Below the pieces are notes generated by a model. It was given only the letters and a program-made list of their open reading frames with translations, was not told the DNA's origin and did not search any database. Positions 16,117-56,731 of a stretch of 64,000 nt of DNA are shown piece by piece; position 1 is the first letter of the stretch; every line of letters starts with the position of its first letter. The translations under genes were made by a program, and so were the position numbers. Source of the DNA: an uncultured Acidimicrobiales bacterium (GTDB lineage: Bacteria; Actinomycetota; Acidimicrobiia; Acidimicrobiales; SZUA-35); assembly GCA_937958015.1 (NCBI GenBank), contig CALGOA010000063.1, positions 9,079 through 73,078 on the forward strand, given 5' to 3'.

Positions 16117-16890
16117 TCAGTCTCCCATCGTCTTCATGTGGTTGAGGACCGATTCGGCGGTGGGAGAGTGGATCTCATCGACGATGCGACCGTCGGCCAG
16201 GAAGACCGCCCGGTCGGCGTAGGAGGCGGCGATCGGATCGTGGGTGACCATCACGATGGTCTGTCCCATTTCGTCCACGGCCGACCGCATGAAGGCGAGG
16301 ATCTCGCCGCCGGTTCGGCTGTCGAGGTTGCCGGTGGGTTCGTCGGCGAAGATGACCTTGGGCTGGGCGGCGAGGGCCCGGGCCACAGCGACCCGCTGCC
16401 GCTGACCACCGCTGAGTTCGTCGGGCCGGTGGCCGAGGCGGTCGCCGAGGCCTACGGTGTCGATGACCGTCGCTAGCCAGCCAGCATCGGGTGTGGTTCC
16501 GGCCAGGGCGGCGGGAAGTTTGATGTTCTCCTCCACGGTGAGGGTGGGGATCAGGTTGAACGCCTGGAAGACGAATCCGACGTGATCCCGACGGAGCTTG
16601 GTCAACTGCTTTTCGTTCAGGTCACTGAGGCTGACGTCGCCGATCGAGACCGAACCCGAGGTGAGTTGGTCGAGGCCGGCGATGCAGTGCATGAGAGTGG
16701 ACTTGCCCGAGCCGGACGGGCCCATGATCGCAGTGAAGCGACCCTGCTCGAAGTCGACGCTGACACCATCGAGCGCACGCACCTCGGTTTCCCCGGTGCG
16801 GTAGAGCTTCGTAGCGTTCCGGGCGCTTGCGGCGACCGGAGCGGTGACGGGCTGGATCTGGTTGGTTTCTTCGATTGCAAGTAGCGACAT
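16117..16890 (-). CDS. ABC transporter ATP-binding protein (MacB/LolD-like)
   Basis: Walker [10 protein letters not shown], signature [15 protein letters not shown], Walker [13 protein letters not shown]. Confidence 0.95.
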
Positions 16891-17034
16891 GAGCGTTCCT
16901 CGTGACTAGGCGATTTCGTTTGCTCACTGACAATCGCTCGGAACTGGATCTGCCGATATGCGGGAGAACCCCCATCGTCCCCCGACCAACCCCGACTGAA
17001 CCCCGAGCCCACCCCTGAGTGGGTGCCGGGTCGT

Positions 17035-17230
17035 GTGAACGCCCCCGAACTGTCGGCTGCCGGCGTGAACCCGCCCGAACTGTCCGTGGGGCAGGTGAAC
17101 CCGCCCGAAGCGTCACCTCGCATTTCGAACGCCCCCGAACTGTCGGCTGCCGGTGTGAACCCGCCCGAACTGTCCGATTCGAGCGGTTGGGGGTGGTTCG
17201 TAGGCCGTGAGAGCGGTTCGGGGGTGTTTA
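17035..17230. repeat. 30-nt-phased array of 20-nt boxes (5 forward plus 2 inverted), intergenic repeat family, locus A
   Basis: Forward boxes GTGAAC(C/G)C(G/C)CCCGAA(C/G)(T/C)GTC start at 17035, 17065, 17095, 17125 and 17155. Inverted boxes GAGCGGTT(G/C)GGGG(T/-)G(G/T)TT start at 17181 and 17211. All seven starts are spaced by 26 or 30 nt, and the five forward boxes are exactly 30 nt apart. Confidence 0.85.
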
Positions 17231-17288
17231 GCCCGTCGCGTTTTGCCCGGAGCCAACCGGGTTGGGTGGGCCGACTAGCCTCTGAGGG

Positions 17289-17732
17289 ATGCAAACCGAC
17301 AAGTTCATCAAGCGGGCGCAAGAATTCATCGGTTCTGACGGAAGTGTTGATCGCACGGTTGTGGTGCAACAACGGCCGATCACAGCCGTGCTCGCTGGTG
17401 CGGCCGCCTTCTTCGTGGTTTCGATCCTGTTGGCCATCATCGGAGTGGACAACATCATCGTCGCCGGTGGTTTAGGTGGCCTCGCCTTGGCGCTGGCTAC
17501 TGCCTCGATGACCAAGAACTACTACCTCGCCGGCGTGGGCGACCAGATTCAGATGATCCGCCTCAAACAGTGGAGTGGGCAACCCGAGGCTCTCCACAAG
17601 ACCCTGGCTCGGCCATTGGCGGTTGAGCCCTCGAAGGGACTGCTCACCAAGGGCATTCTCCTCGACGGCGAAAAGTACGTCGTCAGCAAGTTGTTCGAAG
17701 AGGAACTTCACGCCCTCCGCCAACCCGTGTAG
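17289..17732 (+). CDS. hypothetical membrane protein
   Basis: 147 aa with two adjacent TM helices (AVLAGAAAFFVVSILLAIIG / GGLGGLALALATASM), then a soluble C-terminal part. It is flanked by inverted copies of the repeat family. Confidence 0.55.
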   Translation: MQTDKFIKRAQEFIGSDGSVDRTVVVQQRPITAVLAGAAAFFVVSILLAIIGVDNIIVAGGLGGLALALATASMTKNYYLAGVGDQIQMIRLKQWSGQPEALHKTLARPLAVEPSKGLLTKGILLDGEKYVVSKLFEEELHALRQPV

Positions 17733-17740
17733 AGCCGCAG

Positions 17741-17850
17741 ACAACCCCGAACCGCTCCCGTCGGCCCCGAACCACCCCCAACCGCTCGATTACGACAGTT
17801 CAGGCGGTTTCATTCGCACAAAGGTCACTTCGGGCGTGCTGTGTGGATCT
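17741..17850. repeat. intergenic box repeat, locus E (reverse orientation relative to locus A)
   Basis: The reverse complement reads ...ACGCCCGAAGTGAC...ATGAAACCGCCTGAACTGTC GTAATCGAGCGGTTGGGGGTGGTTCGGGGCCGACGGGAGCGGTTCGGGGTTGT. By eye this is about 85-90% identical to 17160-17230. Confidence 0.8.
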
Positions 17851-18121
17851 GGATATCGAATCCGATCGATTGCCGCTTCTGACGCTCCTGCCGCAGAGCA
17901 GATCGCCTGCGAGGTCCCAATCCCACCTGATGACGTCTAGCCGCAAGACAAACGGGACAATCCGCCTTTGGCCCTCTGTGGGCCTGGAATCTAAGAAATC
18001 CAATACCTGAGGATGATTCAGGAAACTCCGGGCGGGGCTGCGTGTTGTTCGACCAAGACCTGCTCGCAGCTCAAGGCCGTTTCGCCGGGCGATTGGGGCA
18101 ACGATGGTACGTTTCGTGCCT

Positions 18122-19657
18122 ATGGCAGAGAAAGTCAAGCTGCGGATTGGAAGCGTGGCAAAGGCTGTGCTCGTTACGGGTCAGGCATATCAGGACCCGA
18201 AGGACGCATTAAACGAATTCGTCTCGAACGCTGCCGACGAGTACATCGCCACCGAGTTTGGTCGGATTCGCGTGATCCTTCGCCGGCGCGGCCGCTACCC
18301 GACCATCGCTATCGACGATATGGGCCGTGGAATGTCTCAGGATCGACTGAGGGAGGTTGCTCGAAACCTCTTTAAGTCGGTAAAGGCGGGAGATGACAAG
18401 ACCCTGGGTGAGAAGGCGATCGGACTTCTGGCGTTTCAACAGCTCGGCGCTCGATTGGAAGTCGTTTCTCGTGCAGAAGGAAGTGACGAGACTTGGAGCC
18501 TGAAACTCGAGCGCGGATCGGCCACGGCAAACCTCGCACTCGAAAAACGTCGGGCTCGATCGATGCCCGGTACAACGGTGTACTTGGGCCGCCTCGACAA
18601 AGAGGTTCTTCGTATGCTCACCCAACGCAAGGTGGTCGACTACCTCCGACGTCGGCGTGGGCCCGCCATCGAGCAGGGCCTCTACGAAATCGAGGTCATC
18701 GAGGGCCAGAGCTCCGAACTGGTCACCCCGGACGAACCCGAGGGGGTCAAGGTGCCTCTCAGGGCTCAGGCCACCTTGTGGGGTCCGCTCGAGTTTTCGC
18801 TGTACGTCACACCTCCTGATGGCAAGGACCGGTCGGTCGCTGTGGTCGGTCGGGCTGGTACGACGATCATCGATGACCTTTCTGAGATGGAGGAGTTTCA
18901 GACCCAGCCATGGACGGCGGGTCAGGTAACAGGTCGAATCAGCTTTCCACCGCTTCAGCAGTCAGCGGGACGCCGTGCGATCCTGCGGGACGACAGTGCG
19001 TTTCCGGTATTCCTGGACACGGTTCGTGCGATCGAGCCGTCAGTCCAAACGCTTTTGGAGCGCGTGAGGGCAGAGATCGATCGTGTCGCCAGCGACCGAA
19101 TGTCGGACGAGATTCGGAGGATCTTTGCTTCGGTTCTTCGGGAACTGGAAGATCTGGACAACCCGATGCGTAGTCCTACCGGCGGATTACTCGGTGACGT
19201 CGGTGAAGACCCGGGCGACATTGACACCGTGGGAGACGAAGAGCAGGGCGCAGGACCCACCGAGGAGTCAGCCGACTCGGATCCCCACGACGAATCAGAT
19301 CCGAGTATCGACGATCTCACCGGTCACGGCCGTCCGCCGATTCCGCCCGAACCCAAGGGCGAGGGCCGCAAGAACCGGCGTTCCCGCAAGCTGCCAACAC
19401 TCGAGCCAGACCCAGCACCGGGGGATGTCCGCAGCCGATTCGACCCCGAGGAACGCGTAGTGTTCTATTCTGAGCGCCACCCTGACTTTCTCATGGTGAA
19501 GGGAAACGAGGCTGAGCTACTGGACTACCTGGCAACGCTGGTCGCCAAGGAATATGTCGTCTACAACAACCCCATGGCAGCCGCTCCTGAACTGGCTGAG
19601 GAGATGGTTCGCATGGTGATCCGAGTCCGGCGCCATCTCATTCGTCGACGCCGCTAG
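18122..19657 (+). CDS. GHKL-superfamily ATPase (HATPase_c_3 / MORC-like), orphan
   Basis: Bergerat-fold motifs: N-box ALNEFVSNAADE, G1 IDDMGRGMS (DxGxG) and G2 GEKAIGLLAFQQLG. A long acidic disordered linker and a conserved-looking C-terminal helical module follow. The track start is 18104, and ATG at 18122 is equally possible. Codon usage is visibly less GC-rich than in neighbouring genes. Confidence 0.7.
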   Translation: MAEKVKLRIGSVAKAVLVTGQAYQDPKDALNEFVSNAADEYIATEFGRIRVILRRRGRYPTIAIDDMGRGMSQDRLREVARNLFKSVKAGDDKTLGEKAIGLLAFQQLGARLEVVSRAEGSDETWSLKLERGSATANLALEKRRARSMPGTTVYLGRLDKEVLRMLTQRKVVDYLRRRRGPAIEQGLYEIEVIEGQSSELVTPDEPEGVKVPLRAQATLWGPLEFSLYVTPPDGKDRSVAVVGRAGTTIIDDLSEMEEFQTQPWTAGQVTGRISFPPLQQSAGRRAILRDDSAFPVFLDTVRAIEPSVQTLLERVRAEIDRVASDRMSDEIRRIFASVLRELEDLDNPMRSPTGGLLGDVGEDPGDIDTVGDEEQGAGPTEESADSDPHDESDPSIDDLTGHGRPPIPPEPKGEGRKNRRSRKLPTLEPDPAPGDVRSRFDPEERVVFYSERHPDFLMVKGNEAELLDYLATLVAKEYVVYNNPMAAAPELAEEMVRMVIRVRRHLIRRRR

Positions 19658-19692
19658 GTCTATGACGGGCTCAAACGCTAAGCGCCTCTTTG

Positions 19693-19741
19693 TCTAGCGC
19701 CCTTGGCAAGAATCGAACTTGCGACGCACGGTTTAGGAAAC
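19693..19741. repeat. 49-bp direct repeat, a duplicated 3' half of tRNA-Arg (att-like, distal copy)
   Basis: TCTAGCGCCCTTGGCAAGAATCGAACTTGCGACGCACGGTTTAGGAAAC is identical to 22683..22731, which covers the anticodon loop to the 3' end of the intact tRNA. Confidence 0.9.
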
Positions 19742-19900
19742 TGCCGTGAGCGGTACCGGCCCGTGCCGACGAGTTCCGAAAATTGTCAGTTTGTCCTGTT
19801 CAGAAACGGCCCGCTTGCCGGATCGTTCCGTTCGATACCGGACGTTCCCGCCCTGTCCAGACCACCCATATGGGACAATCCATGGGACACTCCAACGTCG

Positions 19901-21373
19901 CTAAGACGCGGCGCCATACCCGCCCAGGTTGGCGGAAAGGGCCAGTTCAGACTGCAAGCCCAGCGCTATCAGGAACAAGTCGAGCGGAAGACTGCCGATG
20001 CCCGACTCATCTGGAGGTTGCACCTGTGATGGCGGCGTCACCAAGAACGATCGGCCCGAAAACTCAGGAAAGCGTTCAATGAGCCGGCCGAGTCCACTAC
20101 GGGAATGGGAGACCGAGGAACCAATCTCGAACGCCATCGGCGCACCCGGCAGATTCAGGATCAAGTCAACTTCCTCCCTCTTGTCCCGCCAATGAAAGAC
20201 CCGGGTGTTGGTGAGGATGGCCAGATTGCGCACCGCGGTAGCTACGAGGTTCTCAAGTAGATGACCAAGCTCGGTGGGGTTATCCAGCGGAGTCAACCCT
20301 CTCTGAAGCGCAGCGTTTCGGATCGCACCATCGACGAAATACAGCTTTCGCCCTCGGCGCTGGACATTCGACTCAATTCCAGAGAAGTTCGACAAGGTAA
20401 AGATCATGTAGGCCTGCTCGAGATACGAAACGTACTTATCGAGAGTGGGTTGGGCGATACCTAGATCGTTACTCACGTTGGTCGGCGACAGAATTCCCGT
20501 GACCTGCGCGGCCAGAACGTAAAGCAGCCTCTCCAGTGTCATCGGGTTGTCAACGCCAAACGACTGAGGAATGTCCTTGTAGATCGCTCGCTCAACAGCA
20601 TCGGTTCGAAGCACTCGCTGAGATCGGAGCAGTTGGTCGCCTTCGCTCTCGGGCGCGTCCCTCACCAAAGCAGCAAGAAGTTCTGGAAACCCACCCACCA
20701 GCATGAAGGCCCGGCGCTGTGCCATCAACGCCTCGGTCGTCGGCTGACCGGGCCGCAAGTGTGCGATCGTCTCGGCCAGATCACTGCCGACGTCAATCTG
20801 GGGAGGCTCAACTCCAGCCAGATTCAGGAACTCGGCAAAATGGTACGGGCCAAGGTACTGCTCGGTCCACCGGCCGATCCCACTTTCGGTTCGTCTCTTG
20901 CGCAGATCAGCTGTTGCGCTCGAAGTCGCAGCGATGCGCACCGGCCATTGGTCGTCGAAGAATGTCTTCAACCAAAGATCCCAGTCCTCGATGTAGACCA
21001 GTTCGTCCAACATCAAGTACACCGGCCGATCCGGAGTTGCGCCCGCAGCATTCATCGCCTGGCGGACCAAACGAGAGAGATCCTCCCGCATCAGCACCGG
21101 ATGATCGAGACGCATCCACCAGATTCGATCGGGCGAGACACCCTCACTGATCAGGTGGCGCACCGTCTGATACAGAACGGTTGTCTTGCCAACCCGTCGC
21201 GGTCCGAGAATCAAGTGGAATCGATGCGGATCGTCCTCCAGCAACGACTTCCAAAGCGCTTTCGCCATTGGCCTCTCAGTCGGTGGGGCGAGAGAATCCG
21301 ACACTTGTCCTCGCCGATGCCAAACGTTCTGTTCCTCAAACACACGGAGAATTTCCTCAGCGCTCATAACCAA
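19901..21373 (-). CDS. AAA+ ATPase with C-terminal DUF4143-type domain (COG1373-like)
   Basis: 490 aa. Walker A GPRRVGKTT and Walker B LMLDELVY. The overall AAA_14 plus DUF4143 architecture was recognised from sequence. It lies inside the tRNA-bracketed insertion. Confidence 0.85.
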   Translation of the reverse strand: MVMSAEEILRVFEEQNVWHRRGQVSDSLAPPTERPMAKALWKSLLEDDPHRFHLILGPRRVGKTTVLYQTVRHLISEGVSPDRIWWMRLDHPVLMREDLSRLVRQAMNAAGATPDRPVYLMLDELVYIEDWDLWLKTFFDDQWPVRIAATSSATADLRKRRTESGIGRWTEQYLGPYHFAEFLNLAGVEPPQIDVGSDLAETIAHLRPGQPTTEALMAQRRAFMLVGGFPELLAALVRDAPESEGDQLLRSQRVLRTDAVERAIYKDIPQSFGVDNPMTLERLLYVLAAQVTGILSPTNVSNDLGIAQPTLDKYVSYLEQAYMIFTLSNFSGIESNVQRRGRKLYFVDGAIRNAALQRGLTPLDNPTELGHLLENLVATAVRNLAILTNTRVFHWRDKREEVDLILNLPGAPMAFEIGSSVSHSRSGLGRLIERFPEFSGRSFLVTPPSQVQPPDESGIGSLPLDLFLIALGLQSELALSANLGGYGAAS

Positions 21374-21665
21374 TCCACCTTTTAGCCAATCTTTCCTAGA
21401 GCGTCAATAACATACTCACCAAATATGTTAATGGACAAACTACATAGCTAAAGGCCAGTTCAGATTGGCTACGGCACCCGTGCGTCACGAGTACCTGTCG
21501 AACGGACCGAAAAAGCAAGTCATTCCGATCCCGACGCTGGCGTAGTGTGAGCAAGCTGGGAATATTCGACAACGTCACTGCCGTCAGATTTATAGACGCT
21601 GGAGTTCCCCCATTTCGTGAGACACCTGAGTCTGCGAGAATGGTCTTCCAGGGAAGGAGTCCGAG

Positions 21666-21947
21666 ATGGGCACGAGAAGGTATCCCGAGGAGTTTCGTCG
21701 TGAGGCGGTGGAATTGTGGCGGTCGTCTGATCGGCCGCGTCGCCGGGTAGCTGAATCGCTGGGTATCAGCGATGGCACGCTGGTGGCGTGGATTCACGAG
21801 TTCGACCGGGACGAAGAGCCTGGCGCGCTGACCAGTGACTGGCGGGCCGAGTTGGTTCGTCTTCGTAAGGAGTTGGCTGAGGTCAAGCAGGAACGAGAGA
21901 TCCTGAAGAAGGCGGCCGCGTATTTCGCGAAAGAGACGACCAGGTGA
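21666..21947 (+). CDS. IS3-family transposase OrfA (HTH)
   Basis: 93 aa. RRYPEEFRREAVELW...ESLGISDGTLVAWI plus a leucine-zipper-like tail ending KKAAAYFAKE, typical of IS3 OrfA. Confidence 0.8.
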   Translation: MGTRRYPEEFRREAVELWRSSDRPRRRVAESLGISDGTLVAWIHEFDRDEEPGALTSDWRAELVRLRKELAEVKQEREILKKAAAYFAKETTR

Positions 21948-22538
21948 CCCCGACTGGTTCGTTCATGATCATCGAGCGGAGTTCCCTGTGAACAGGCTAT
22001 GTGAGCTCGTGGAGGTGTCGAACGCGACTTCAGTGCTGTGACGTCGAACCTGAAATGGGTTGTCGATGTCACCGAGTTCAGATGTATCGATGGCAAGCTC
22101 TACCTGGCCGGGATCCTTGACCTGCACGACCGGGGACTGGCGGGCTGGTCGATGGGTGAACGCAACAACACTGACCTCGTCGTCAATGCCCTCGTCATGG
22201 CACTCGCCCGTCGTGATCCCGATGGTGATCTGGTCCATCACGCCGACCGGGGTTCGCCCTACACCTCGATCGAGTTCACCAACCGGTTGTCGGACTGGAA
22301 CCTGACCCCGTCGTATGGGTCAACCGGCGATGCCTTCGACAACGCCGCCATCGAATCGTTTTGGGCGACCCTCAAGCGTGAGATCAACCACATCCACGGC
22401 GGCTGGCAACAACTCACCCGATCCGAACTACGAACAATCCTGTTCGACTACATCGAAGTGTTCTACAACCGCCAACGCCACCAAGCTCGACTCGAGCACC
22501 AAACACCCGCCGAGGCCTACGCTAAATCAGCAGCATGA
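21948..22538 (+). pseudogene. IS3-family transposase OrfB, N-terminally deleted (DDE/rve core only)
   Basis: The rve core is present (WVVDVTEF...LYLAGILDLHDRGLAGW...HHADRGSPYTS...DNAAIESFWATLKRE...FYNRQRHQARL). About 100 residues normally lying between the FPV..LC..L..S segment (present at ~21990, then a stop) and the catalytic core are missing. Confidence 0.75.
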
Positions 22539-22687
22539 ACTAACAATCACCCGTGTCTCACCAACCGGGGGAACTCCACGCCGACCCTAGCGAACATATG
22601 GACACTTACATGGGACACGCGATCGGAAAGACCGATACAAGCCAGTACATTCCGGCACGACAGGCCGTTGAACTGGACTTTCTCTAG

Positions 22688-22760
22688 CGCCCTTGGCAAG
22701 AATCGAACTTGCGACGCACGGTTTAGGAAACCGACGCTCTATCCACTGAGCTACAAGGGC
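22688..22760 (-). tRNA. tRNA-Arg (anticodon CCT)
   Basis: 73-nt cloverleaf folded by hand: acceptor GCCCTTG/CAAGGGC, D arm GCTC/GAGC, anticodon loop TTCCTAA, T arm GCAAG-TTCGATT-CTTGC, discriminator G. CCA is not encoded. Confidence 0.9.
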
Positions 22761-22828
22761 AGTGTCTGAGTGGAACTCAGCTCGCGAGCGTATCGCCGGT
22801 AGATCCGACGCTCACGTCGGTATCGCTC

Positions 22829-22935
22829 GAACCCACCTGAGCTGTGTCGTTGATGGCGCTGAGCCTCGCTTGAACTGCTCGAATCGAGCGGTTCAGGGTG
22901 GCTGAGGTGTGGTGGGAGCGCTTCGGGAGGGTTGG
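22829..22935. repeat. degenerate copy of the intergenic box repeat, locus D
   Basis: CGAACCCACCTGAGCTGTGTC, GAGCCTCGCTTGAACTGCTC, GAATCGAGCGGTTCAGGGTGGCTG and GAGCGCTTCGGGAGGGTTGG, lying between the tRNA and the SDR gene. Confidence 0.5.
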
Positions 22936-23703
22936 TTAGCCGGCCATGGTCAGTCCGCCGGAGACGCTGAGCACCTGTCCGGTGACGAACGAAGCGTCGT
23001 CGCTGGCAAAGAACAACACGGCGCCCGCTAGATCATCGGGCTGGCCGAGGCGTCCGATCGGAATGGCTCGGCGAAATGCCTCCCGCAACTTCTCGGGGTT
23101 CGCGGCAGCGTCGGTCACGGTGGCCAGGAGAGCAGTGTCGGTGGGACCAGGGCACACCACGTTGAAGGTCACCCCGTGGCGAGAGTGCTCCCGAGCCAAC
23201 GTCTTGGAAAAAGCGATGATGCCGGCTTTGCATGCGGCGTAAACAGCTTCGCCCGATGAACCAACTCGAGCTGCGTCGGAGGCGATGTTGACGATTCGGC
23301 CCCCGCCTCGTTCCACCATGGCCGGCAAGACGGCGTGATGCATGTTGAGGGCGCCGACCAGATTGATGTCGATCAGCCGGGACCAGTCCTCGGGTTCGGT
23401 ATCGAGGAATGGGACGAAGAGATCCCAGCCAGCGTTGTTGACCAACACATCGACGGGGCCGAGGTCGGTGACGGTTCGTTCGAGTGCGGCGTTGACCGAT
23501 TCTCGTTCCGTGATGTCGCAATCGAGCGCGATCACTCCGACGTCATCGCTGCGAAGCGAGTCGGCAACGGCCTTCGCAGCAGCAAGATCCCGGTCGAGAA
23601 CCGCGACGGCCGCTCCCTCCTGCACGAACCGATGGCACAGGGCGCCGCCGATTCCGCCCCCGCCGCCGGTCACGATCACGGTCTTGCCTTCGAATCTGTT
23701 CAC
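22936..23703 (-). CDS. classical SDR oxidoreductase (FabG-like 3-oxoacyl reductase family)
   Basis: TGGGGGIG dinucleotide motif, NNAG, and S...YAACK catalytic tetrad elements. Confidence 0.9.
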   Translation of the reverse strand: MNRFEGKTVIVTGGGGGIGGALCHRFVQEGAAVAVLDRDLAAAKAVADSLRSDDVGVIALDCDITERESVNAALERTVTDLGPVDVLVNNAGWDLFVPFLDTEPEDWSRLIDINLVGALNMHHAVLPAMVERGGGRIVNIASDAARVGSSGEAVYAACKAGIIAFSKTLAREHSRHGVTFNVVCPGPTDTALLATVTDAAANPEKLREAFRRAIPIGRLGQPDDLAGAVLFFASDDASFVTGQVLSVSGGLTMAG

Positions 23704-23790
23704 TCGGAGTCCTTCGTTCGTTGGGGAGCCTTAGACGAATCTTGCCCTCGGACGACCGCGTGTCAATTTTCGATGGCGGGAGAACCGGGC

Positions 23791-24080
23791 CCTGGCCCCC
23801 GAACCGACGCAAGCTTGATTGAGTTCGCCCGAACTGTTCGATTCGAGCGGTTGGGGAGGGTTGTGGTGAACCCGCCTGAAGTGTCGTGGGCGTACGTGAA
23901 CGCGCCCGAACTGTCGGCTGTTGGCTCGAGTCCGCCTGAACTGTTCGATTCGGGCGCTTGGGGGTGGTTCGTCGTGAATCCGTCCGAAGTGACGTGGGCG
24001 TGCGTGAACACACCCGAAGTGACGTGGGCGGGCGTGAATCCGTCTGAAGTGATCGAATCGAGCGGTTGGGGTGGTTTTGG
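23791..24080. repeat. 30-nt-phased box array with ~107-nt higher-order periodicity, locus B
   Basis: Forward boxes start at 23821, 23866, 23896, 23926, 23974, 24004 and 24034, 30 nt apart within each block, with a degenerate box at ~23791. Each block ends in GA(T/A)TCG(A/G)GCG(G/C)TTGGGG.GG.T, at 23840, 23947 and 24055. Confidence 0.85.
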
Positions 24081-25676
24081 CTAGTCGTGGGTGAGGACGG
24101 TCTCGGTGCCGTCGTGGACGTGGGTGATGGAGAACGTGTCCGCAGCCAGGTCGGCCATAAGCGTGGCGGTCGTGGTTCCGTTCTCCCAGCGCAGGCCGAG
24201 CTGATTCGGTTCGGTGGCGAGCACGGTGAGCTCGCCCGCGAATGCGGCCGAGGTGTTCCGGAGCCGCATGATCTCCAACTGGTCCTGAACCACACTGCGC
24301 TTGAGACCATCGTCGATGTCTTGAGCGGTGAGGTTGGTCCGGTTGATCTCCTTGTGGCCACCGGCGCCGCCGCGGTCGGCGGCGGCATAGTCGTTCGCGC
24401 CCGCGAACAGATCCAGATACCAGACCTGAGGGGTGCCCGGCATGAACAGCTGAATCGCTCGGGCCAGTCGCAGACGAGCCTCGCTCTCGCCGAGGGCACT
24501 GAAGAACGTGGTGTTCACCTGATAGTAGGAAATCTTCGAACCATCGGGTCCGTACAGATTCTTCACCCGGCCACCCCGCTCCAACAACCGCTCGATGATC
24601 GATTCGATCTCTTCGTTGGCCAATAACCCGTCCGTCTGCGACGTGCCACCGCCTCGTAGATCGATTACCGGGACGCCGTCGTGGCAACCGAGCATGTTGA
24701 CCGTCTTCAGGTCCTTCTCGACGATCTCACCGATCCACCGGAGCAGACGAGCATTGGTGCCGCTGTCTATGGCATCGATCACCAGACCGGGAAAGAAGAA
24801 GTCGTAGATCGGGTAGTCCTGAGCCGACAATTCTTCGTGCAGTCCTGTGCCGTACTCGGAGTGGATCTCGGGCAGCAGAACCAGGCCGCACTCCTCCGCG
24901 ATGTGTCGTAGTCGATCGAGGTACTGCCAAGTGCCGGGCGTGTTGAAGAAGTTGGATTCCCCAATCTCCTTGTGCAGATAGGCAAACGCATCGAGGCGAA
25001 GAATCTTCGCTCCGAAGTCGGCGAGTTGACGCAGGGTTGTGTGATAGAAGTCCCACACCTGTTCCGATCGAGCGTTCAGGTCCATCTGCCCCAGATACGT
25101 TCGTTCGCCGTCCACCACATCGACCTGTTGATAGAAGGTGTTCCAGTAGAAGCGGTCGGACCCGTCGGGAAATCGCACCTGCAAGATTGGTAGACCGGGT
25201 TTTCGCATGAACAGCTTCTCGAGGTGTTCGGGTGACGGCACGACGTAGCCGTCCTCGTGCAGCTCACCGCTCCCGTCCCAGAACGAGTTCCAGTCGATGA
25301 AGAAGTCGGTGAACTCAGACCGGTCGCCGTTGGCCACCAAGTCCTGAAACTGGGGTGACCCAACAGAGAGGTGATTCAGCACAAGGTCGAACTTGAGCAT
25401 GATCCCCAGGTCGTTCAACGCATCGAGATCCTCCGGCGACACCAGATCGGCATTGAGGTTGTAGTCGATGATGGAGAAGCCACGATCGAGATCGCTGTTG
25501 AAGAACGTGGGCAGCACGTAGAACAACGAGAACACATCCCGCAGTTCGGACCGTTGCAACATCCGCACCGTGCCGGCGAGGTCGGTATCCAAGCTGTCGG
25601 GGTACGCGTTGAGCATCACCCCGTTTGGCAGGCCGTGTTTCATGCTCGCCCCGAAGCTGGCCGGTTCCGCAGTCAT
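24081..25676 (-). CDS. GH13_18 sucrose-phosphorylase-like glycoside phosphorylase
   Basis: 531 aa. N-terminus GVMLNAYPDS, RLDAFAYL (nucleophile region) and LPEIHSEYG (acid/base region), all typical of the sucrose phosphorylase subfamily. Confidence 0.85.
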   Translation of the reverse strand: MTAEPASFGASMKHGLPNGVMLNAYPDSLDTDLAGTVRMLQRSELRDVFSLFYVLPTFFNSDLDRGFSIIDYNLNADLVSPEDLDALNDLGIMLKFDLVLNHLSVGSPQFQDLVANGDRSEFTDFFIDWNSFWDGSGELHEDGYVVPSPEHLEKLFMRKPGLPILQVRFPDGSDRFYWNTFYQQVDVVDGERTYLGQMDLNARSEQVWDFYHTTLRQLADFGAKILRLDAFAYLHKEIGESNFFNTPGTWQYLDRLRHIAEECGLVLLPEIHSEYGTGLHEELSAQDYPIYDFFFPGLVIDAIDSGTNARLLRWIGEIVEKDLKTVNMLGCHDGVPVIDLRGGGTSQTDGLLANEEIESIIERLLERGGRVKNLYGPDGSKISYYQVNTTFFSALGESEARLRLARAIQLFMPGTPQVWYLDLFAGANDYAAADRGGAGGHKEINRTNLTAQDIDDGLKRSVVQDQLEIMRLRNTSAAFAGELTVLATEPNQLGLRWENGTTTATLMADLAADTFSITHVHDGTETVLTHD

Positions 25677-30352: not shown

Positions 30353-30572
30353 CCGAGCACTGGGGCCCGACATCGACACGGCATAACTCAAGGCCTCGAC
30401 CTGCGGCTTTTCGTTGACCTTGCGCGTAATAAAGCTGGCGTAAATAAGCCTCATATAAACGAAAGTAGATCTTCGAGAAACTTCCCAAATTGTGGGAATG
30501 GGATCGAGGGGTCGTGAGTTCTATAGCGCTGACCGGCCACAACGGACGGTGCCTCTGAAAGGAACTCTCGAC

Positions 30573-31691
30573 ATGACTACTCGCCTCCCCCTCCCGAACT
30601 GGAAGCGCACCGCTGCGCTGCTGCTCGCCGTCAGCCTCACCGCAGCTGCGTGCGGATCCGATGATCCCGAAGCCGCGGCCGGTGTCGACGACCAAACCGA
30701 ACAGGCCGTCGAAGCCGAAGAAGCAATGGAAGATGAAGAAGGATCCATGGAGGACGACGAGTCCATGGAGGAAGATTCGATGGAGGACGAAGACTCGATG
30801 GAGGAGGATTCCATGGAGGAGGACTCGATGGGGGAGGATTCCATGGAGGAGGACTCGATGGAAGAAGAGGGAGCGATGTCTGAAGGTCGGCCGACCATCG
30901 ACATCACCTTCGAAGGCCTCGAACCGCTCGGCGATAACTTCGAATACGAGCTGTGGACGGTTGTCGACGGTGCGCCCGTGACCGGCGGCATCTTCGACAT
31001 CGACGCCGCGGGCGACGTTGTGTTCTCATCCGATCAGGATGTGTTCTACGGACACGACGGTGCGTCCGACGTTGTGATCTCGATCGAGCCCGCCGTCGAC
31101 CCTGACCCCGCCCCTGCAGCAGCCAAACCGCTTGGTGGCGCCATCGCCGATGACGGTTCCTTCACGCTGGGGACCAGCCACCCGGCAGCCTTTGGCACCG
31201 ACTTCGCCGACGCCAGTGGTGGATACATCCTGGCCACACCGAGCAACGGTCCCGACACCGACGAGCTCTCCGGACTGTGGTTCCTCCAGGTCGGCGATGA
31301 CGGCCCCGAGGCCAGCCTGAACCTTCCCGAACTCCCCGAGGGTTGGGTGTACGAAGGGTGGGCCGTCGCCGATGGCCAGCCGATCTCGACCGGCACCTTC
31401 ACCGATGGCGCCGCCGCCGACGACTTCGACGGATTCACCGGACCCGGCGATGTGCCGGCGTACCCCGGTGAGGACTTCCTGGTGAACGCTCCTGACGGGA
31501 TCGACTTCCCGATCAACCTGCAGGGTGGCCTGGCCGTGATCAGCGTTGAACCGGCCGATGATAATGACCCCGCTCCGTTTGCGCTGAAGCCGCTCGTGGG
31601 TGAGATCCCCGCCGATGCCGAACCGTTCACCAACTACGACCTCGGAACCGGCCCCGTCTTCTCCGGAAGCGGACAACAGAACAACGGCTGA
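30573..31691 (+). CDS. lipoprotein with an acidic SMEED-repeat linker and two RskA-C-terminal-like (anti-sigma-K-type) extracytoplasmic domains
   Basis: Start moved to ATG at 30573. Signal peptide with lipobox LTAAAC. The repeat run MEDEEGSMEDDESMEEDSMEDEDSMEEDSMEEDSMGEDSMEEDSMEEE follows. Then two modules with (Y/W)E(L/G)W.V.DG.P..(T/S)G.F. Confidence 0.65.
   Translation: MTTRLPLPNWKRTAALLLAVSLTAAACGSDDPEAAAGVDDQTEQAVEAEEAMEDEEGSMEDDESMEEDSMEDEDSMEEDSMEEDSMGEDSMEEDSMEEEGAMSEGRPTIDITFEGLEPLGDNFEYELWTVVDGAPVTGGIFDIDAAGDVVFSSDQDVFYGHDGASDVVISIEPAVDPDPAPAAAKPLGGAIADDGSFTLGTSHPAAFGTDFADASGGYILATPSNGPDTDELSGLWFLQVGDDGPEASLNLPELPEGWVYEGWAVADGQPISTGTFTDGAAADDFDGFTGPGDVPAYPGEDFLVNAPDGIDFPINLQGGLAVISVEPADDNDPAPFALKPLVGEIPADAEPFTNYDLGTGPVFSGSGQQNNG
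30726..30878 (+). repeat. in-frame 15-nt/30-nt tandem repeat encoding (D/E)SMEE units
   Basis: GAGGATTCCATGGAGGAGGACTCGATGG(A/G)G is reiterated, with about ten 5-aa units. Confidence 0.75.
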
Positions 31692-33820: not shown

Positions 33821-35247
33821 GCCGGGCCCGCTTCCGGAAGCTCGATTCGAAACCGTGCGCCGCCCAGCGGCGAATCGCCGATTTCGATCGTGCCACCGTG
33901 GCTGTCCACGATCGATTTCGCAATTGCGAGACCGAGACCTGAGCCTCCGGTGGTTCGATGGCGGGAGGGATCCAGTCGGCTGAAACGATCGAACACGACC
34001 TTGCGCTGGTCGATCGGAATCCCGGGTCCATCATCTTCGACGATGAGGACAACCGCACCGTCGGATTCGTTGCGGTGACATGCCACCGAGATCGTGCTGC
34101 CTCCGTGGCGGTGGGCGTTGTCGATGAGGTTGCGGACCACTCGACCAAGGCGGCCCGGGTCACCGATCATCCGGACCGGCGTGATGTCCAAAGTTCGGAT
34201 GGTGGCCGGATGCAGTCGGGCCTCGGAGCGAAGAATGTCATCGAGGTCGACCTCCACTCGCTGAGGCTGCACCTCTCCGTAGCGCGAGAGATCCAGCAGA
34301 TCCTGGATCAACCCGCTCATGCGTCGGCCATGTTCAAGGACCAGACCGTTCGCCCGCTCCAGCCGTTCGGGATGACCCGATGCGAGTTCGGCTTCGCCCA
34401 GGAGGACCGTCAGTGGACTCTGCAGTTCATGGGAGGCGTCAGAGACAAACTGCTTCTGGGCCTGTGCGCCACGGTCGAGCCGGGACAACATGTGGTTGAG
34501 CGTCGTGGCGAGGCGATCGATCTCGTCGTTGGTGCCCGGAGCTTCCAACCGTTCATGCAACGTGTCCGCGCTGATGGCGCTCGCTTTGGCTGTCATCTCG
34601 TCGACCGGTCGTAGGACGCGGCCCGTCACCAACCAGACGAGTCCGCCGAATATCGCCGTGAGCAGCGGGATGATCAGCCAGAGGACCGAGCGCACCTGGT
34701 CGACGTTTCGATCCACGAGGTTGAGCGGGGACAACGCCTGCACCGCATAGGAGGTGCCGTCGGGGGCGATCGCGGGCCGTTCGGTCACCTCCCACGGCTG
34801 GTCTAGGAAGAAGTCTGTGAGGATCTCGTCGTCGAAGATCGGCTCCACGCTCGATGAGGTGGCCAGAACGCCATCACCGGGCACCACGAATTCGGACCCA
34901 TCTGGTCCGACGACGATGTCGCCGGGTTGGAAGAATGCGCCATCGAACTCCACCACCTCGGTCGTGAAAAAGTCGACCTGCACGATCGATGCGTTGATGA
35001 ACGATCCGTCGGAGGTCAAGATCGCGAACTCGGTGCTGTCCGAACCCAGCGGCATCGAGAATCGGCGGGGATCCTCGCCTTCCTCGATCATGGCCACGAT
35101 GTCGCTCAGGGTGTTTTCGTTCTGCTCGGCCAGTTCGAGTCGGACCTCGCGTCCGACGAGCGTGACGATCACGATCGACGCCAACGCAAGAACGGTGGCC
35201 AGAATGATGGTGGCGGCCGCGGTGATTCGGGCCCGGAGGCTCCTCAT
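33817..35247 (-). CDS. two-component sensor histidine kinase
   Basis: Two TM segments flank a periplasmic domain, followed by a HAMP region, the H-box SHELQSPLT, and N/G boxes (NLIDNAHRH, DDGPGI, GGSGLGLAI). Confidence 0.9.
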   Translation of the reverse strand: MRSLRARITAAATIILATVLALASIVIVTLVGREVRLELAEQNENTLSDIVAMIEEGEDPRRFSMPLGSDSTEFAILTSDGSFINASIVQVDFFTTEVVEFDGAFFQPGDIVVGPDGSEFVVPGDGVLATSSSVEPIFDDEILTDFFLDQPWEVTERPAIAPDGTSYAVQALSPLNLVDRNVDQVRSVLWLIIPLLTAIFGGLVWLVTGRVLRPVDEMTAKASAISADTLHERLEAPGTNDEIDRLATTLNHMLSRLDRGAQAQKQFVSDASHELQSPLTVLLGEAELASGHPERLERANGLVLEHGRRMSGLIQDLLDLSRYGEVQPQRVEVDLDDILRSEARLHPATIRTLDITPVRMIGDPGRLGRVVRNLIDNAHRHGGSTISVACHRNESDGAVVLIVEDDGPGIPIDQRKVVFDRFSRLDPSRHRTTGGSGLGLAIAKSIVDSHGGTIEIGDSPLGGARFRIELPEAGPA

Positions 35248-35969
35248 TCGCGCACCCTGAAACCAACTCCGCGAAGATTCTCAATCTGGTCTGAGCCCAA
35301 TTTCTTTCGCAGGTATCCCACGTACACGTCGACCACATTGGGGTCACCGTCGAAGTCCATTCCCCACACCTGTCGGACCAACTCGTCCCGGGAGAGCGGG
35401 CGATCCTCGGCCTTCAGAAGTGTCTCGAGCAACGTGGCCTCCCGAGTCGTGAGCGCCGTCTCTACCCCGTCCTTCGCACATCGTCGGGAGGTCGTATCGA
35501 ACGTGATCGAACCTCTCGCAAGAACCGAAGATCGTCGCACCGCGGGGGTTCGGCGCATGAGCGCTCGCAGGCGGGAAACGAGTACGGCGGTCGAGAACGG
35601 TTTGCGCAGATAGTCATCCGCACCCAGGTCGAGTCCGTCGGCTTCGTCAAACTCGCCGGCTTTCGCGGTCAGCATCAGTATCGGAATCATGCTCGACTCG
35701 GCCCGCAACGTGCGACAGACCTCGTAGCCGTTCATGCCCGGCATCAGGATGTCGAGGACTACTGCCGCATAGTTCGACTCTCGGGCCATCCACAACCCGT
35801 CGAGTCCATTGGCAGCTCGGTCCGATTCGATTCCGGCGTCCCGAAGCGTCTGCTGAACCAGTTCCGCGATGGCGTCGTCATCTTCCACCACCAGAACGCG
35901 CGAGCTTTCGATCCCGGACGCGCCCGAGTCGACGTGGGGCGTAGCGACGGTTTTCGGAGTGGGTTTCAT
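35244..35969 (-). CDS. OmpR-family response regulator
   Basis: Receiver motifs VLVVEDDD, DILMPGMNG and LTAK. The C-terminal winged-helix region ends in RGVGFRV. 4-nt overlap with the kinase gene. Confidence 0.9.
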   Translation of the reverse strand: MKPTPKTVATPHVDSGASGIESSRVLVVEDDDAIAELVQQTLRDAGIESDRAANGLDGLWMARESNYAAVVLDILMPGMNGYEVCRTLRAESSMIPILMLTAKAGEFDEADGLDLGADDYLRKPFSTAVLVSRLRALMRRTPAVRRSSVLARGSITFDTTSRRCAKDGVETALTTREATLLETLLKAEDRPLSRDELVRQVWGMDFDGDPNVVDVYVGYLRKKLGSDQIENLRGVGFRVRE

Positions 35970-36141
35970 GATCGAGTGTTGGCGTTCCTATCGGCGGCGG
36001 CAACGGGGCTATGAAACCAGCTCGACGGTAAGAGAGGCCTAAGAACTCTCCGTTGCTGAGGCTTCGCCGTGTATGGCAGTTGAGAGTCGGTCCGCAGAAT
36101 CGGGTTTTCGCCGCAAACACGGGTCGACTACGTTCGCCCCT

Positions 36142-37230
36142 ATGACAAGGGCGAGCGCAGTTCTCGTGGCAGCGACGATTCTGGTAGCGGGTTGCTCCGG
36201 GGGCTCCGAGCCCGAGGGGGCCGATACGACCGTGGCCCCGTCCTCGTCCACCACCGAAGCCTCCACCACAACGACCACGGCCCCAACAACCACCACGACG
36301 ACCGAGGCCACCACCACGACCGTCGCGTTTGCGTTCCCCGATGATCCGGGCCGGATGATCGCTGCAGTGCAGTTGACCGGGGCCGAGTTCGGCGCCGATT
36401 ACATCGAGAGCGACAATGACGACCCCGATGATGAGCCTCTCTGTGACGGTGTCGACTCGTTGAACACCCAGTTCCCTCCCCAACTCGATGACCAAAAGGT
36501 CTTCGAAGGTGACCATCTGTTCTTCTCCAACGTTGGCGTGTACCCCACCGCAGCCGACGCCGACGCGGCATTCGACTACCTCCGCACCGCCTACGAACGA
36601 TGCAACGAGGGGATTCGGATCGAGGACGGACAGGAGATCCTGCTGGCTGCGATTCCCTTCAGCCCGCCCTCCATTCTGGGGGCCGACCGTCTGACGGGCC
36701 TGGCCCTGGACCAGACCACCCCCGATGTTGCCGTTCTGGTTCAGACCCGTCTGATCACGGTAGATCGGCTATTGATCTTCGTCGGTGGATCTGATCCCGA
36801 CGTTGTACAGCAGATGGCGGAGGCGGTGGTTGCCCGCACGCGTGAACCGGCGGAACCCGAGAGCTTCGCCCCGGTCGGAAGTCTGAACGTGGGCCCCGGC
36901 TACACGAATCCTGCGTACTACAGCTTCGCCGAGGGCCCGGACCAGCTCCGGGCTCTGGGGTTGAGCGAGGCGTCGCTGATGTGGCTCAATACCAACTCGC
37001 TGGAACGTGTCGATGAGGTGGCCAGCAGCAGTTGTGTCGCCACCCAGCAGTTGACCCCGGGGGACTCGGGAGCATTGGTCGATGAGATCATTCTGGGCGT
37101 CTTCAGCGCCGAGGATCGGGCCACGTATCCGCCGGAGGCGCTCGGCGAGGTATACGGAGCTGCGAACGGGATCTATTGTCCTGGGCTTTCGGAGTATCTC
37201 ACGGAGGTCATCGACGCCATTCCGGGGTAG
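36142..37230 (+). CDS. hypothetical lipoprotein with Thr-rich linker
   Basis: Start moved to ATG at 36142 (MTRASAVLVAATILVAGC lipobox), followed by a TTEASTTTTTAPTTTTTTEATTTT linker. No enzymatic motif recognised. Confidence 0.6.
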   Translation: MTRASAVLVAATILVAGCSGGSEPEGADTTVAPSSSTTEASTTTTTAPTTTTTTEATTTTVAFAFPDDPGRMIAAVQLTGAEFGADYIESDNDDPDDEPLCDGVDSLNTQFPPQLDDQKVFEGDHLFFSNVGVYPTAADADAAFDYLRTAYERCNEGIRIEDGQEILLAAIPFSPPSILGADRLTGLALDQTTPDVAVLVQTRLITVDRLLIFVGGSDPDVVQQMAEAVVARTREPAEPESFAPVGSLNVGPGYTNPAYYSFAEGPDQLRALGLSEASLMWLNTNSLERVDEVASSSCVATQQLTPGDSGALVDEIILGVFSAEDRATYPPEALGEVYGAANGIYCPGLSEYLTEVIDAIPG

Positions 37231-45976: not shown

Positions 45977-46546
45977 GTGACTTCGCCCAACGAGACGGGT
46001 CTGGCGGGGGGACCGGGTCTTGCGCCATTCTGGATCCGGAGAACGTCGGATGATTTCGACGCAGTGGAGAGACATCACAAGTTGAGTGAATTCAAGCGCA
46101 CAGAGATCTTTACGGTGTTCCTTATCGGCGCCGTCGCCGTCGCGCTCTTGGTCGTGGGGTTCAACCGCGACCGCAGCAGCCTGATCGAAGCGGAACCGGC
46201 CGGTACCAGTACCTCGGCGCCGGTGACTCCGATTTCAGCTCCGGCAAACACCACCGAAGCGACCACCACCGTGGCTACAACGACGACCGAAACCTCTACA
46301 ACTACGACGCTCCCCACCACGACCAACACCTCCACAACTACGACGCTGCCGACCACGACCACGGTCGCCACCACAACCACTGAGGCGACGACCACCACTG
46401 CGGCCCCAGCCACGACGGCGGCGCCGCGGCGTACGACCCGTCCGCCGACGACCCGTCGGCCCACGACGACTCGTCCGCCCACCACTCCGGCACCTACCCA
46501 GCCGCCTCGTACCTTCGCTCCGCCGACGTGGACGGTTGCGCCCTAG
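45977..46546 (+). CDS. membrane-anchored Thr/Pro-rich low-complexity protein
   Basis: One TM helix (IFTVFLIGAVAVALLVVGF), then about 110 aa of T/P-rich sequence including a 36-nt direct duplication at 46292-46360. The start is uncertain: GTG at 45977 or TTG at 46082. Confidence 0.45.
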   Translation: MTSPNETGLAGGPGLAPFWIRRTSDDFDAVERHHKLSEFKRTEIFTVFLIGAVAVALLVVGFNRDRSSLIEAEPAGTSTSAPVTPISAPANTTEATTTVATTTTETSTTTTLPTTTNTSTTTTLPTTTTVATTTTEATTTTAAPATTAAPRRTTRPPTTRRPTTTRPPTTPAPTQPPRTFAPPTWTVAP

Positions 46547-50986: not shown

Positions 50987-51963
50987 GCGTGAATCGGTCC
51001 GGTGTGGGAGGACAACGATGCGGGTGGACGGCCGCGACGGACGGCGAGAAACTCCGCCGCCACGGCGACGGCGGTTTCGGCCGGACTCCGCGATCCGAGG
51101 TCCAATCCGACCGGACCGTGGATTCGTGAACGGTCGGTATGGCCCAACGCCTCCAGCCGCTCGGCTCGGGCGGTCTGGGTGTGGCGGGATCCCATGGCGC
51201 CGATGTATCCGACCTCGCTAACGAGTGCCGCAGCGAGCGCGGGGGTGTCCACGTCGGGATCGTGACTCAGCACCAGCAACGCATCGGCGGGGTTGGCGTC
51301 CGCGCAGAAGTCGATAGCCGGTTGGGCGGTGTCGGTCTGAGAAACCTCCCAGCCCATCAACTGACCCTGGGCCGCAAACGCGTCGGCCATCGGCCCTCCA
51401 CCGACGATCATCGTTCGGGTGGTGGGGATAGCGGCGTTGAAGAGCACATCGACGCCATCGACCTCATGGATCTCGGCCACCGAGGCGCCTCCCCGAATGA
51501 TCCGATGGGCGATCGTTGCGGCGGCGTCGTCGTTTACAGCCGCATCCAGAGAGCCGGCAACGCCGTGTGGACTCACGACGAGGTCCGCCCCACTCCCGTC
51601 GGCCGGGGTGGCGATCACGACCGGTTCCGCCGCAGTGAACCACGCGAACGTTTCTGCTGGAAGGTCAGCGAGCGGCGACAGCAGGAGCGTGGCTCGACCA
51701 CCACACACCAACCCCGCGTCACCGGCCTCGGCGTCGGAGATTCCAACCTGCAGCGTATGGCGGGCAGGGTCGGCCTCGACCAGTTGAGCGTCGGCGACGC
51801 CTCGGAGAACCGAACCGTGAACGGTTCGGGAGCCGTCGGCGTCAGCGATCATCACGGCCGCATCGTCACTCTCCCGCAGGCCCACACCCGAGATGCGGAC
51901 CACGCGAACCAACGTTCCGACCCGGGGTTCCAACGTCCGAAAAGGTTCTCGTACCAGTTCCAT
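50983..51963 (-). CDS. XdhC/CoxI-family accessory protein
   Basis: Start chosen at ATG 51963 (MELVREPF). An N-terminal XdhC_CoxI-like segment and a C-terminal Rossmann-like part (MIVGGGPMADAFAAQGQLMGWEV) are present. 4-nt overlap with the sulfotransferase gene. Confidence 0.7.
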   Translation of the reverse strand: MELVREPFRTLEPRVGTLVRVVRISGVGLRESDDAAVMIADADGSRTVHGSVLRGVADAQLVEADPARHTLQVGISDAEAGDAGLVCGGRATLLLSPLADLPAETFAWFTAAEPVVIATPADGSGADLVVSPHGVAGSLDAAVNDDAAATIAHRIIRGGASVAEIHEVDGVDVLFNAAIPTTRTMIVGGGPMADAFAAQGQLMGWEVSQTDTAQPAIDFCADANPADALLVLSHDPDVDTPALAAALVSEVGYIGAMGSRHTQTARAERLEALGHTDRSRIHGPVGLDLGSRSPAETAVAVAAEFLAVRRGRPPASLSSHTGPIHA

Positions 51964-51972
51964 CACCACAGC

Positions 51973-52557
51973 ATGCCGAGAGGCGATACTCTTTGCGCCG
52001 TGGGTTTGATTTGTAGTCGCATAGGTTGCCGCGAAAAGGCAGCCGCCAGCCTTCAGTTCGATGCTGAGCGCTCCACCGCGATCCTCATCGACCTCACCCA
52101 CGCCCGGAACGGGATGCCGTTGTGTGAGCGTCACGCCTCGTCCCGGACCGCCCCCGTTGGCTGGCAAATGGTCGATCGCCGAACCGGAGCTCGCAAGATG
52201 GAGATCTGGTCAGCTGAGCAAGAGGGTCGCCCGGCGCCAGCCTTCGCAGCACCGACCGATCGCCCGGCGCCCAAGCGTCCTTCGGAACCGATGACCCGTC
52301 GGGTCGAGGATCGCGATGGCGAGGACACACCCGCCGCTGCGCCAACACGGTCGGTGCCCGAGGAACGTCCCGCCGCCAAACGACCACAACCTGAACCGGT
52401 GGCGGAGCCCGAACCGGCCCCGGTCACTGCAGCCGACGACGCGCCCCAGAGCGAGTTCCGCTGGCCAAAACAGAGCGATCAGCAGGACGACGAGGACAAG
52501 CAGGACATCGCGGCCGACAGCCCGCTGCTGTCCCGGGCGTTCCGCGCCGCCAAGTAG
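51973..52557 (+). CDS. DUF3499-family protein with an acidic/Pro-rich tail
   Basis: Only the 3' part of track ORF 51139..52557 is credible. CSRIGCREKAAASLQFD...LCERHASSRTAPVGWQMVDRR matches the actinobacterial DUF3499 pattern. The start (ATG 51973 or GTG ~52000) is uncertain. Confidence 0.65.
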   Translation: MPRGDTLCAVGLICSRIGCREKAAASLQFDAERSTAILIDLTHARNGMPLCERHASSRTAPVGWQMVDRRTGARKMEIWSAEQEGRPAPAFAAPTDRPAPKRPSEPMTRRVEDRDGEDTPAAAPTRSVPEERPAAKRPQPEPVAEPEPAPVTAADDAPQSEFRWPKQSDQQDDEDKQDIAADSPLLSRAFRAAK

Positions 52558-52650
52558 GCAAAACCTCAAGTGGACAAAACCTACGGTCTATCGCACGGGT
52601 GGTTCGGCTCGTCCTGACGCTCCCGATTACCCCGAAACGTCGCGATCGTT

Positions 52651-52730
52651 GCTGAACCCGCCCGAAGTGTTCTATTCGAGCGGTTCGGGCGGGTTCGTGC
52701 ACCGAACGAGCGGTTCGGGCGGGTTCGTGG
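52651..52730. repeat. intergenic box repeat, locus C (one forward plus two inverted boxes; perfect 13-bp hairpin)
   Basis: GAACCCGCCCGAA (52654-52666) is the exact reverse complement of TTCGGGCGGGTTC at 52684-52696 and again at 52714-52726. The inverted boxes are 30 nt apart. Confidence 0.8.
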
Positions 52731-56704: not shown

Positions 56705-56731
56705 TGGGCACCTCAATGGTCGGGAGAAGTA

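Follow-up and report, generated by a model that had tools for sequence, protein, structure and literature searches.

The 64,000-nt stretch of DNA from an uncultured Acidimicrobiales bacterium that was analysed here (the window) carries at positions 17035-17230 a series of 20-nt boxes in 30-nt phase, and the question is which kind of element they form. The first-pass annotation had read them as an array of sites for a cooperatively binding protein rather than as a simple hairpin. Direct reading of the sequence located five forward (F) boxes (GTGAACCCGCCCGAACTGTC) beginning exactly at 17035, 17065, 17095, 17125 and 17155 and two inverted (R) boxes (GAGCGGTTSGGGGTGGTTC) beginning 30 nt apart at 17181 and 17211, all as annotated. 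The annotated consensus with the initial letters GTGAAC describes most F boxes of this array, only the fourth begins with TCGAAC. The spacer GGCTGCCGG is present at both 17055 and 17145, thus the suggested 90-nt super-period was confirmed. Tandem Repeats Finder reported a period of 30 nt for 17035-17174 and periods of 108 nt and 30 nt for 23826-24076. Eight copies of the 20-mer with at most three mismatches occur in the window, against 0.01 expected from shuffled sequences.

HMMs were built from the F and R boxes and the window was scanned. The F model detected 15 boxes at E<=0.02, the R model nine at E<=0.053 and two weaker ones at 23952 (E=0.15) and 24059 (E=1.1). Every detected box falls within one of five loci: A (17035-17230), B (17739-17843, minus strand), C (22827-22935), D (23819-24080) and E (52652-52727). 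The four further arrays listed by the first-pass annotation are real and occur in both orientations, while its possible degenerate copy near 1813-1875 had no HMM match even at E<=50 and was discarded. All five loci within the 64 kb are situated between genes, in a window that is ~80 % coding, so the described restriction to intergenic DNA holds. Conserved phasing was likewise recovered: the F-to-F interval is 30 nt in nine of ten cases, with an exception of 32 nt in locus C, the R-to-R interval is 30 nt in all four, and inner F and inner R boxes begin 26 nt apart in six of seven. The R box had been equated with the reverse complement of the F box; the two are related in this way, yet they are distinct sequences, as the F model scored reversed R boxes with ~8 bits versus 14-20 bits for most true F boxes.

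A common plan was recognised at all five loci: one to five F units are followed by a loop of ~6 nt, with the sequence CGATTC, CGAATC or similar, and then by one or two R units. The basic unit has ~110 nt: an outer and an inner F box separated by a spacer, then the loop (CGATTC), then an inner and an outer R box, again separated by a spacer. Locus A, laid out as 5F + 2R, comprises on the plus strand a forward arm of five F units of 30 nt, each a 20-nt box plus a 10-nt spacer of type a, b or c (17035-17174), the central loop CGATTC between inner F and inner R (17175-17180), and a reverse arm of two R units 30 nt apart (17181-17230), the first of which pairs with the fifth F unit and the second with the fourth. 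Three F units are left without an R partner and are nonetheless well conserved. Loci B (17739-17843, minus strand) and C (22827-22935, plus strand) both consist of two F units, the loop and two R units, B being the most decayed copy. Locus D (23819-24080, plus strand) is composed of three tandem hairpin units (1F+R, 3F+R and 3F+R) with a period of 108 nt. Locus E (52624-52730, plus strand) has a degenerate outer F unit, an inner F unit, the loop and two identical R units. The spacers of loci A and D fall into recurring classes (a, GGCTGCCGGY; b, GTGGGCGKRC), and a 75-nt block of the order F-a-F-loop-R is 84 % identical between these loci. Together, the spacer classes and the common block indicate that blocks of several boxes were copied between loci as units; further local tandem duplications of 30, 90 and 108 nt have presumably taken place.

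Loci A and D resemble each other also on the F side. Some 85 nt of their left flanks align with a score of 31, the maximum among 300 shuffles being 29. The left tail of locus A (16905-17034, plus strand) holds degenerate F-like boxes and the ~85 nt, GCGGGAGAACC among them, that resemble the left flank of locus D; the tail of locus D (23731-23818, plus strand) holds a degenerate F box and the sequence resembling the tail of A, ~30-115 nt upstream of the start codon of an SDR gene. Both tails extend towards start codons, those of two unrelated genes. A left tail was sought at all copies and significant similarity was found solely between A and D, with loci B, C and E lacking it. The shared tail could be an additional module of the element, or a shared promoter or leader that the element carried along. 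The motif GCGGGAGAACC precedes by ~70 nt the start codons of an ABC ATPase gene and of the SDR gene, which are unrelated and both on the minus strand; it was not enriched elsewhere in the window. An identity of the arrays as canonical promoters was dismissed.

That the arrays code for a protein of VNPPELS repeats, represent a CRISPR-like array or are an artefact of assembly is scarcely credible. In the F array no stop codon interrupts five of the six frames, one of which reads VNPPELS, and the 30-nt period equals ten codons; however, stop codons break the VNPPELS frame at loci B and C, the long open reading frames overlap with real genes of another frame or of the opposite strand, and the six-frame translation had no match at E<=10 among 5.8 billion proteins. 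The arrays are thus not translated as a real repeat protein. CRISPR arrays require repeats of 24-48 nt and unique spacers of similar length; here the boxes measure 20 nt, and identical types of 10-nt spacer return at different loci. Run ERR9287628 was assembled independently by Logan, and contig L001 of that assembly contains locus B completely and locus A in part, with 99.7 % identity; the start of this contig falls inside array A, its end at another repeat. Since the loci were reproduced independently, the arrays are real and not created by assembly.

The boxes are restricted in their distribution. GcvP and the sucrose-phosphorylase-like protein encoded in the window had their best matches, with 80-82 % identity, in uncultured Acidimicrobiales close to Ilumatobacter, and I. 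coccineus was 74 % identical in this comparison. Five relatives share the gene order around gcvP, and the intergenic region 3' of the gene has there 4, 4, 29, 4 and 23 nt compared to 184 nt in the window. The gap that follows the sucrose phosphorylase gene measures 117 or 7 nt in relatives and 377 nt here. The orthologous sites are empty: a scan of ~117 kb of relatives at ~80 % amino-acid identity with the F and R models revealed no significant box. No boxes were present in the 4.5 kb beyond the left end of the window. Exact and degenerate box searches in 185,579 reference genomes, evidently without the genome of the window itself, yielded eight chance singletons in unrelated taxa. A pattern of the hairpin centre, which matches seven of seven units in the window, found 39 singletons in JGI metagenomes, none with an F core beside the match; viral contigs gave chance singletons only. 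Plasmid and phage searches had no match, a literature search for the box strings returned nothing, and in Rfam the arrays had no match at the gathering score, nor at E<=5 over 16800-24300. The statement that the element belongs to no described family was therefore upheld in these collections. The absence from relatives and from the searched data suggests a family private to the lineage, as far as these searches reach, that would have arisen after the split at ~80 % amino-acid identity. An analogous family of other sequence was sought in the relatives, where a single unrelated 52-bp perfect palindrome, GCTTCTGTCATAGGTTTATCGGTCTA / TAGACCGATAAACCTATGACAGAAGC, was found; it lies in one relative (L072, 11584-11635) 3' of the sucrose phosphorylase gene, at the place that array D takes in the window, and the Logan contig L073 ends inside it.

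The arrangement of inverted F and R doublets, which pair in all loci, results in a two-tier imperfect hairpin of ~110 nt: the inner F unit pairs with the inner R unit and the outer F unit with the outer R unit. Minimum free energies were -64.1 kcal/mol for locus E, -65.7 kcal/mol for locus C and -62 kcal/mol for locus A. In comparison to shuffled sequences the folds of E and C had z-scores of -4.9 and -3.7, the decayed locus B had -0.3. In an alignment of seven hairpin units, standard pairs occupy 80.6 % of 222 cells, and pairing falls to 31-53 % once the partners are slid by one to three columns. Seven pairs have changes on both sides. The covariation signal is weak with only seven sequences, 22 of 500 shuffles reaching the observed score. 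Equal modules of 30 nt on both arms keep the two tiers of the hairpin in register, which explains the strict period without recourse to the helical phase of the DNA. A G-quadruplex in the G-rich arm was considered and rejected, as the arm has too few G runs and the loops between them would be too long.

The pairing is strongly asymmetric. In the alignment, 47 G·T cells are opposed by 3 A·C cells, hence the strand that reads from F to R is paired to the above 80.6 % and its complement to 60.8 %, and the minimum free energies of the two strands are 10-24 kcal/mol apart. The bias is kept in the inverted copy B; it thus follows the orientation of the element and not the chromosomal or replication strand. 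A structure that folds as a single strand is expected to have such an excess of G·T over A·C, a site that is bound as duplex is not. Most copies have three mismatches in common (C·T, G·G and G·G). Locus E is the exception: its identical R units (52678-52727) are perfectly complementary to the F core, and all three mismatches are replaced by Watson-Crick pairs because both R units carry three changes relative to the common R type. This perfection would fit a template-switch correction of a quasi-palindrome or an ancestral perfect form.

With these folds, long hairpins of the plan F(n)-loop-R(m) at every locus with a strand-dependent wobble bias, the preference of the first-pass annotation for a protein array over a hairpin was not supported. 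Its argument that a phase of 30 bp places all boxes on one face of the DNA also failed: 30 bp correspond to 2.86 turns of B-DNA, successive boxes are rotated by ~51 degrees, and one face is not kept. We regard it as improbable that the boxes are duplex sites for a cooperatively binding nucleoid-associated or regulatory protein, for example a winged-helix response regulator on GAAC half-sites 10 bp apart. A protein may nonetheless bind to the boxes or to the hairpin. The boxes are better conserved than the spacers (identity 0.78 versus 0.39), a feature that fits hairpin and protein-binding readings alike. The motif GAAC-N6-GAAC in each box, recurring with strict period, and the conservation of the unpaired F units of locus A would suit protein binding, and an OmpR-family regulator is encoded at 35244-35969, which is circumstantial. 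Apart from the drift around the helix, the sites speak against such a role by their position at gene 3' ends and between convergent genes, beside unrelated functions, and by their absence from the orthologous regions of relatives; a G·T bias has no meaning for binding to duplex DNA. Loop, spacer classes and the 85-nt tail are common to several loci, which argues for common descent and not for convergent protein sites. The likeness of GAAC-N6-GAAC to a PHO box or GlnR box was rejected: the half-sites have a period of 10 instead of 11 nt and the sites lie at 3' ends.

The gene context differs between locus A and the remaining loci. Locus A, with its left tail, occupies a divergent region: on one side starts the ABC ATPase gene (16890, minus strand), upstream of which the tail lies, on the other a gene for a membrane protein of 147 amino acids. 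At locus B, the R end is 6 nt past the stop codon of this 147-aa gene (17289-17732). The R end of locus C is 0 nt from the TAA stop of the SDR gene (22936-23703, minus strand), and the element is placed upstream of a tRNA-Arg gene. The R end of locus D is 0 nt from the TAG stop of the sucrose-phosphorylase-like gene (24081-25676, minus strand), so that this element fills the space between the sucrose phosphorylase stop and the SDR start. The C-terminal end of the sucrose phosphorylase falls into the same alignment column as in seven homologs, which places element D outside the gene. Locus E is situated between the convergent genes for a DUF3499 protein (stop 52557) and gcvP (stop 52742-52744), with the R end 11 nt from the gcvP stop codon. 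Thus, at four of the five loci (B, C, D and E) the R end is near the stop codon of the gene that is transcribed into the element, and at all four the mRNA of this gene corresponds to the weaker-folding strand. A rule of orientation, the R end at the stop codon, is suggested by these four cases. The stop codons beside the elements are TAA or TAG in five of five cases in comparison to 49 % in the window; a p value of ~0.03 was considered too weak to claim a TA-type stop codon as target site. TAG or TAC is present at both ends of all five elements, with boundaries chosen by eye. The element ends are fuzzy, the arms being inverted repeats with degenerate outer ends, and a clear target-site duplication was not found at the five loci.

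Hairpins directly behind stop codons may be selected transcript-end elements, acting as terminators, as barriers against 3'-exonucleases or as insulators between transcription units. We consider this unlikely, and it is compatible with an origin as interspersed repeat. The distances of 0, 0, 6 and 11 nt to the stop codons at four of five loci, the situation of locus E between convergent genes and the fact that the mRNA-sense strand still folds, with -35 to -54 kcal/mol, are in favour of such a function. However, a T-run is absent and a scan for terminators was empty at all arrays, so that intrinsic terminators were dismissed; the better-folding F-to-R strand is antisense to the upstream gene at all four 3'-end loci, locus A lies between gene starts, and the same sites comprise just 4-29 nt in relatives. 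Nor would surplus unpaired F units be needed.

The neighbourhood of the loci has several further features. The 147-aa gene (17289-17732, plus strand) codes for a predicted membrane protein with neither a Pfam or PADLOC match nor a transposase signature, and lies between arrays A and B, which are inverted relative to each other. The tRNA-Arg(CCT) gene at 22687-22760 (minus strand) has its 3' half duplicated 3 kb away with 95 % identity (19688-19746, 22678-22736), which resembles the att sites of an integrated island in decay. A DUF4143/AAA_14 ATPase gene (19901-21373) of this island matches the PADLOC candidate defence family PDC-S01, and near the tRNA gene the island holds IS3-family transposase fragments (21666-21947, 22038-22538); the GC content is lower over 17.7-21.4 kb. 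Upstream of gcvT-gcvP lies a tandem glycine riboswitch (56728-56896, minus strand) with two aptamers scoring 63 and 51 bits, as expected for this operon. The DUF3499 protein (51139-52557, plus strand) was called with 472 aa, its relatives have 164-247 aa, and the Pfam match is limited to residues 292-351; the long call may result from a miscalled start or reflect an extension. Tandem repeats occur also inside open reading frames. An in-frame 15/30-nt repeat at 30732-30862 encodes an acidic stretch rich in Met, Glu and Asp in an anti-sigma-K (RskA_C) like protein (30492-31691, plus strand). Two similar regions with ACC/ACG-rich repeats on the plus strand are located at 36244-36320 (ORF 36073-37230, plus strand) and 46259-46482 (ORF 46075-46485, minus strand).

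In its design the element is closest to the BOX elements of pneumococci and also to REP/BIME. BOX elements have a modular structure of boxA, a variable number of boxB and boxC (Croucher et al. 2011, PMC3049150). The likeness includes the composite build of an intergenic repeat whose internal tandem modules vary in number, ends that pair into a stem-loop, the enrichment downstream of genes, changes in length by gain or loss of modules and the absence of an own transposase. In contrast, pairing takes place here between the tandem modules themselves, which form the arms on either side in matching register; separate end modules corresponding to A and C are missing, and the sequence is GC-rich without similarity to BOX, in a host that belongs to the actinobacterial Acidimicrobiales and not to the Firmicutes. 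The resemblance is thus one of architecture only; the boxA, boxB and boxC modules were not matched in sequence or layout.

The REP, BIME and REPIN repeats of Proteobacteria (Nunvar et al. 2010, PMC2817692; Delihas 2011, PMC3184786) share with our arrays the GC-rich extragenic units in regularly spaced clusters, the species-specific sequence, hairpins formed from inverted pairs, and the frequent location at 3' ends and between convergent genes. As in REPINs, two inverted units form a hairpin doublet. A REP unit, however, is an imperfect palindrome of 20-40 nt that folds on itself, whereas the F box GTGAACCCGCCCGAACTGTC is not self-complementary, and BIMEs alternate in orientation, whereas direct repeats are found here within each arm. 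A REP-associated tyrosine transposase (RAYT) was not seen in the window. A Pfam annotation of the ~50 genes of the window revealed neither a RAYT/Y1 nor an IS200/IS605 gene nor another plausible mobilising gene; the IS3 fragments were the only insertion sequence remains. MITEs are delimited by terminal inverted repeats and target-site duplications, and their ends would match those of an autonomous insertion sequence of the same genome, for which the window offers just these fragments.

Mycobacterial interspersed repetitive units (MIRU) consist of direct repeats of 46-101 bp only and often carry small open reading frames coupled to the flanking genes; an inverted arm or hairpin is absent. Our family is like MIRUs in its actinobacterial host, the intergenic location, the variable copy number of tandem units and the dispersed loci, and differs in the presence of the inverted arm and the hairpin. 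Integron attC sites, including the Vibrio cholerae repeats, are imperfect palindromes of ~60-140 nt just past open reading frames. They fold as single strands with strand-specific mismatches, and are defined by R''/L''...L'/R' sites with an integrase or cassette array nearby. Size, position, fold and the consistent orientation to the upstream reading frame, four of four here, are shared traits. Nevertheless, the elements of the window are accompanied by neither an integrase nor a co-oriented cassette array and are dispersed among syntenic housekeeping genes. An identity with attC was rejected, as the RYYYAAC / GTTRRRY cores were not matched (the box cores are CCCGAAC and GTTSGGG) and an integrase was not found in the window.

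Taken together, the boxes are probably the arms of an interspersed palindromic repeat that is new, non-coding and specific to its lineage, and that belongs in general terms to the REP/BIME-BOX-MITE kind. The ~110-nt unit would fold as single-stranded DNA or RNA, in the F-to-R strand, into the two-tier imperfect hairpin, and some copies would carry the ~85-nt tail on the F side. Copies appear to have been inserted into short intergenic gaps, mostly right past stop codons, as the comparison with the empty sites of the relatives suggests. Arms may subsequently have grown and shrunk by tandem duplication of 30-, 90- and 108-nt blocks, through slippage or unequal recombination. The elements would act as selfish or neutral DNA, and transcribed hairpins would probably serve as 3'-end barriers or stabilisers as a by-product. 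The evidence comprises five loci with seven hairpin units. Against a repeat of this kind counts that the window lacks transposases of the types by which hairpin repeats are known to be moved; the fuzzy ends, the weak covariation, the conserved mismatches, the unpaired yet conserved F units of locus A and the better conservation of boxes than of spacers count against it likewise.

Neither the asymmetry of the wobble pairs nor the uniform orientation towards TA-type stop codons is accounted for by a purely neutral model. Recognition of a single strand is conceivable in view of the G·T bias, of mismatches kept among the copies, of the two tiers with their cognate partners and of the uniform orientation, with the R end at TAA/TAG stops. 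The family may thus represent a new strand-specific system of the Acidimicrobiia in which the folded single strand is moved or used, either as a target, built of modular arms, of an HUH/Y1-type or other single-strand recombinase or as an antisense RNA family; we rate this as quite unlikely. A structured antisense RNA family might be transcribed across the gene 3' ends.

To our knowledge, small interspersed repeats have not been described in Acidimicrobiia, and a literature search for such repeats in this class found none. Acidimicrobiia are abundant, mostly uncultured Actinomycetota of water and soil. If the boxes are indeed arms of an interspersed palindromic repeat, genomes of this class can hold dense hairpin repeats that are private to a lineage, in our case five loci in 64 kb. 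Such repeats inflate intergenic regions and break assemblies, as seen in the Logan contigs that end inside arrays. The number of units may vary between strains and would then be a possible strain marker. With its arms in register and the asymmetry of its wobble pairs, the family presents a compact case for the question whether selection acts on the single-stranded structure of such repeats.
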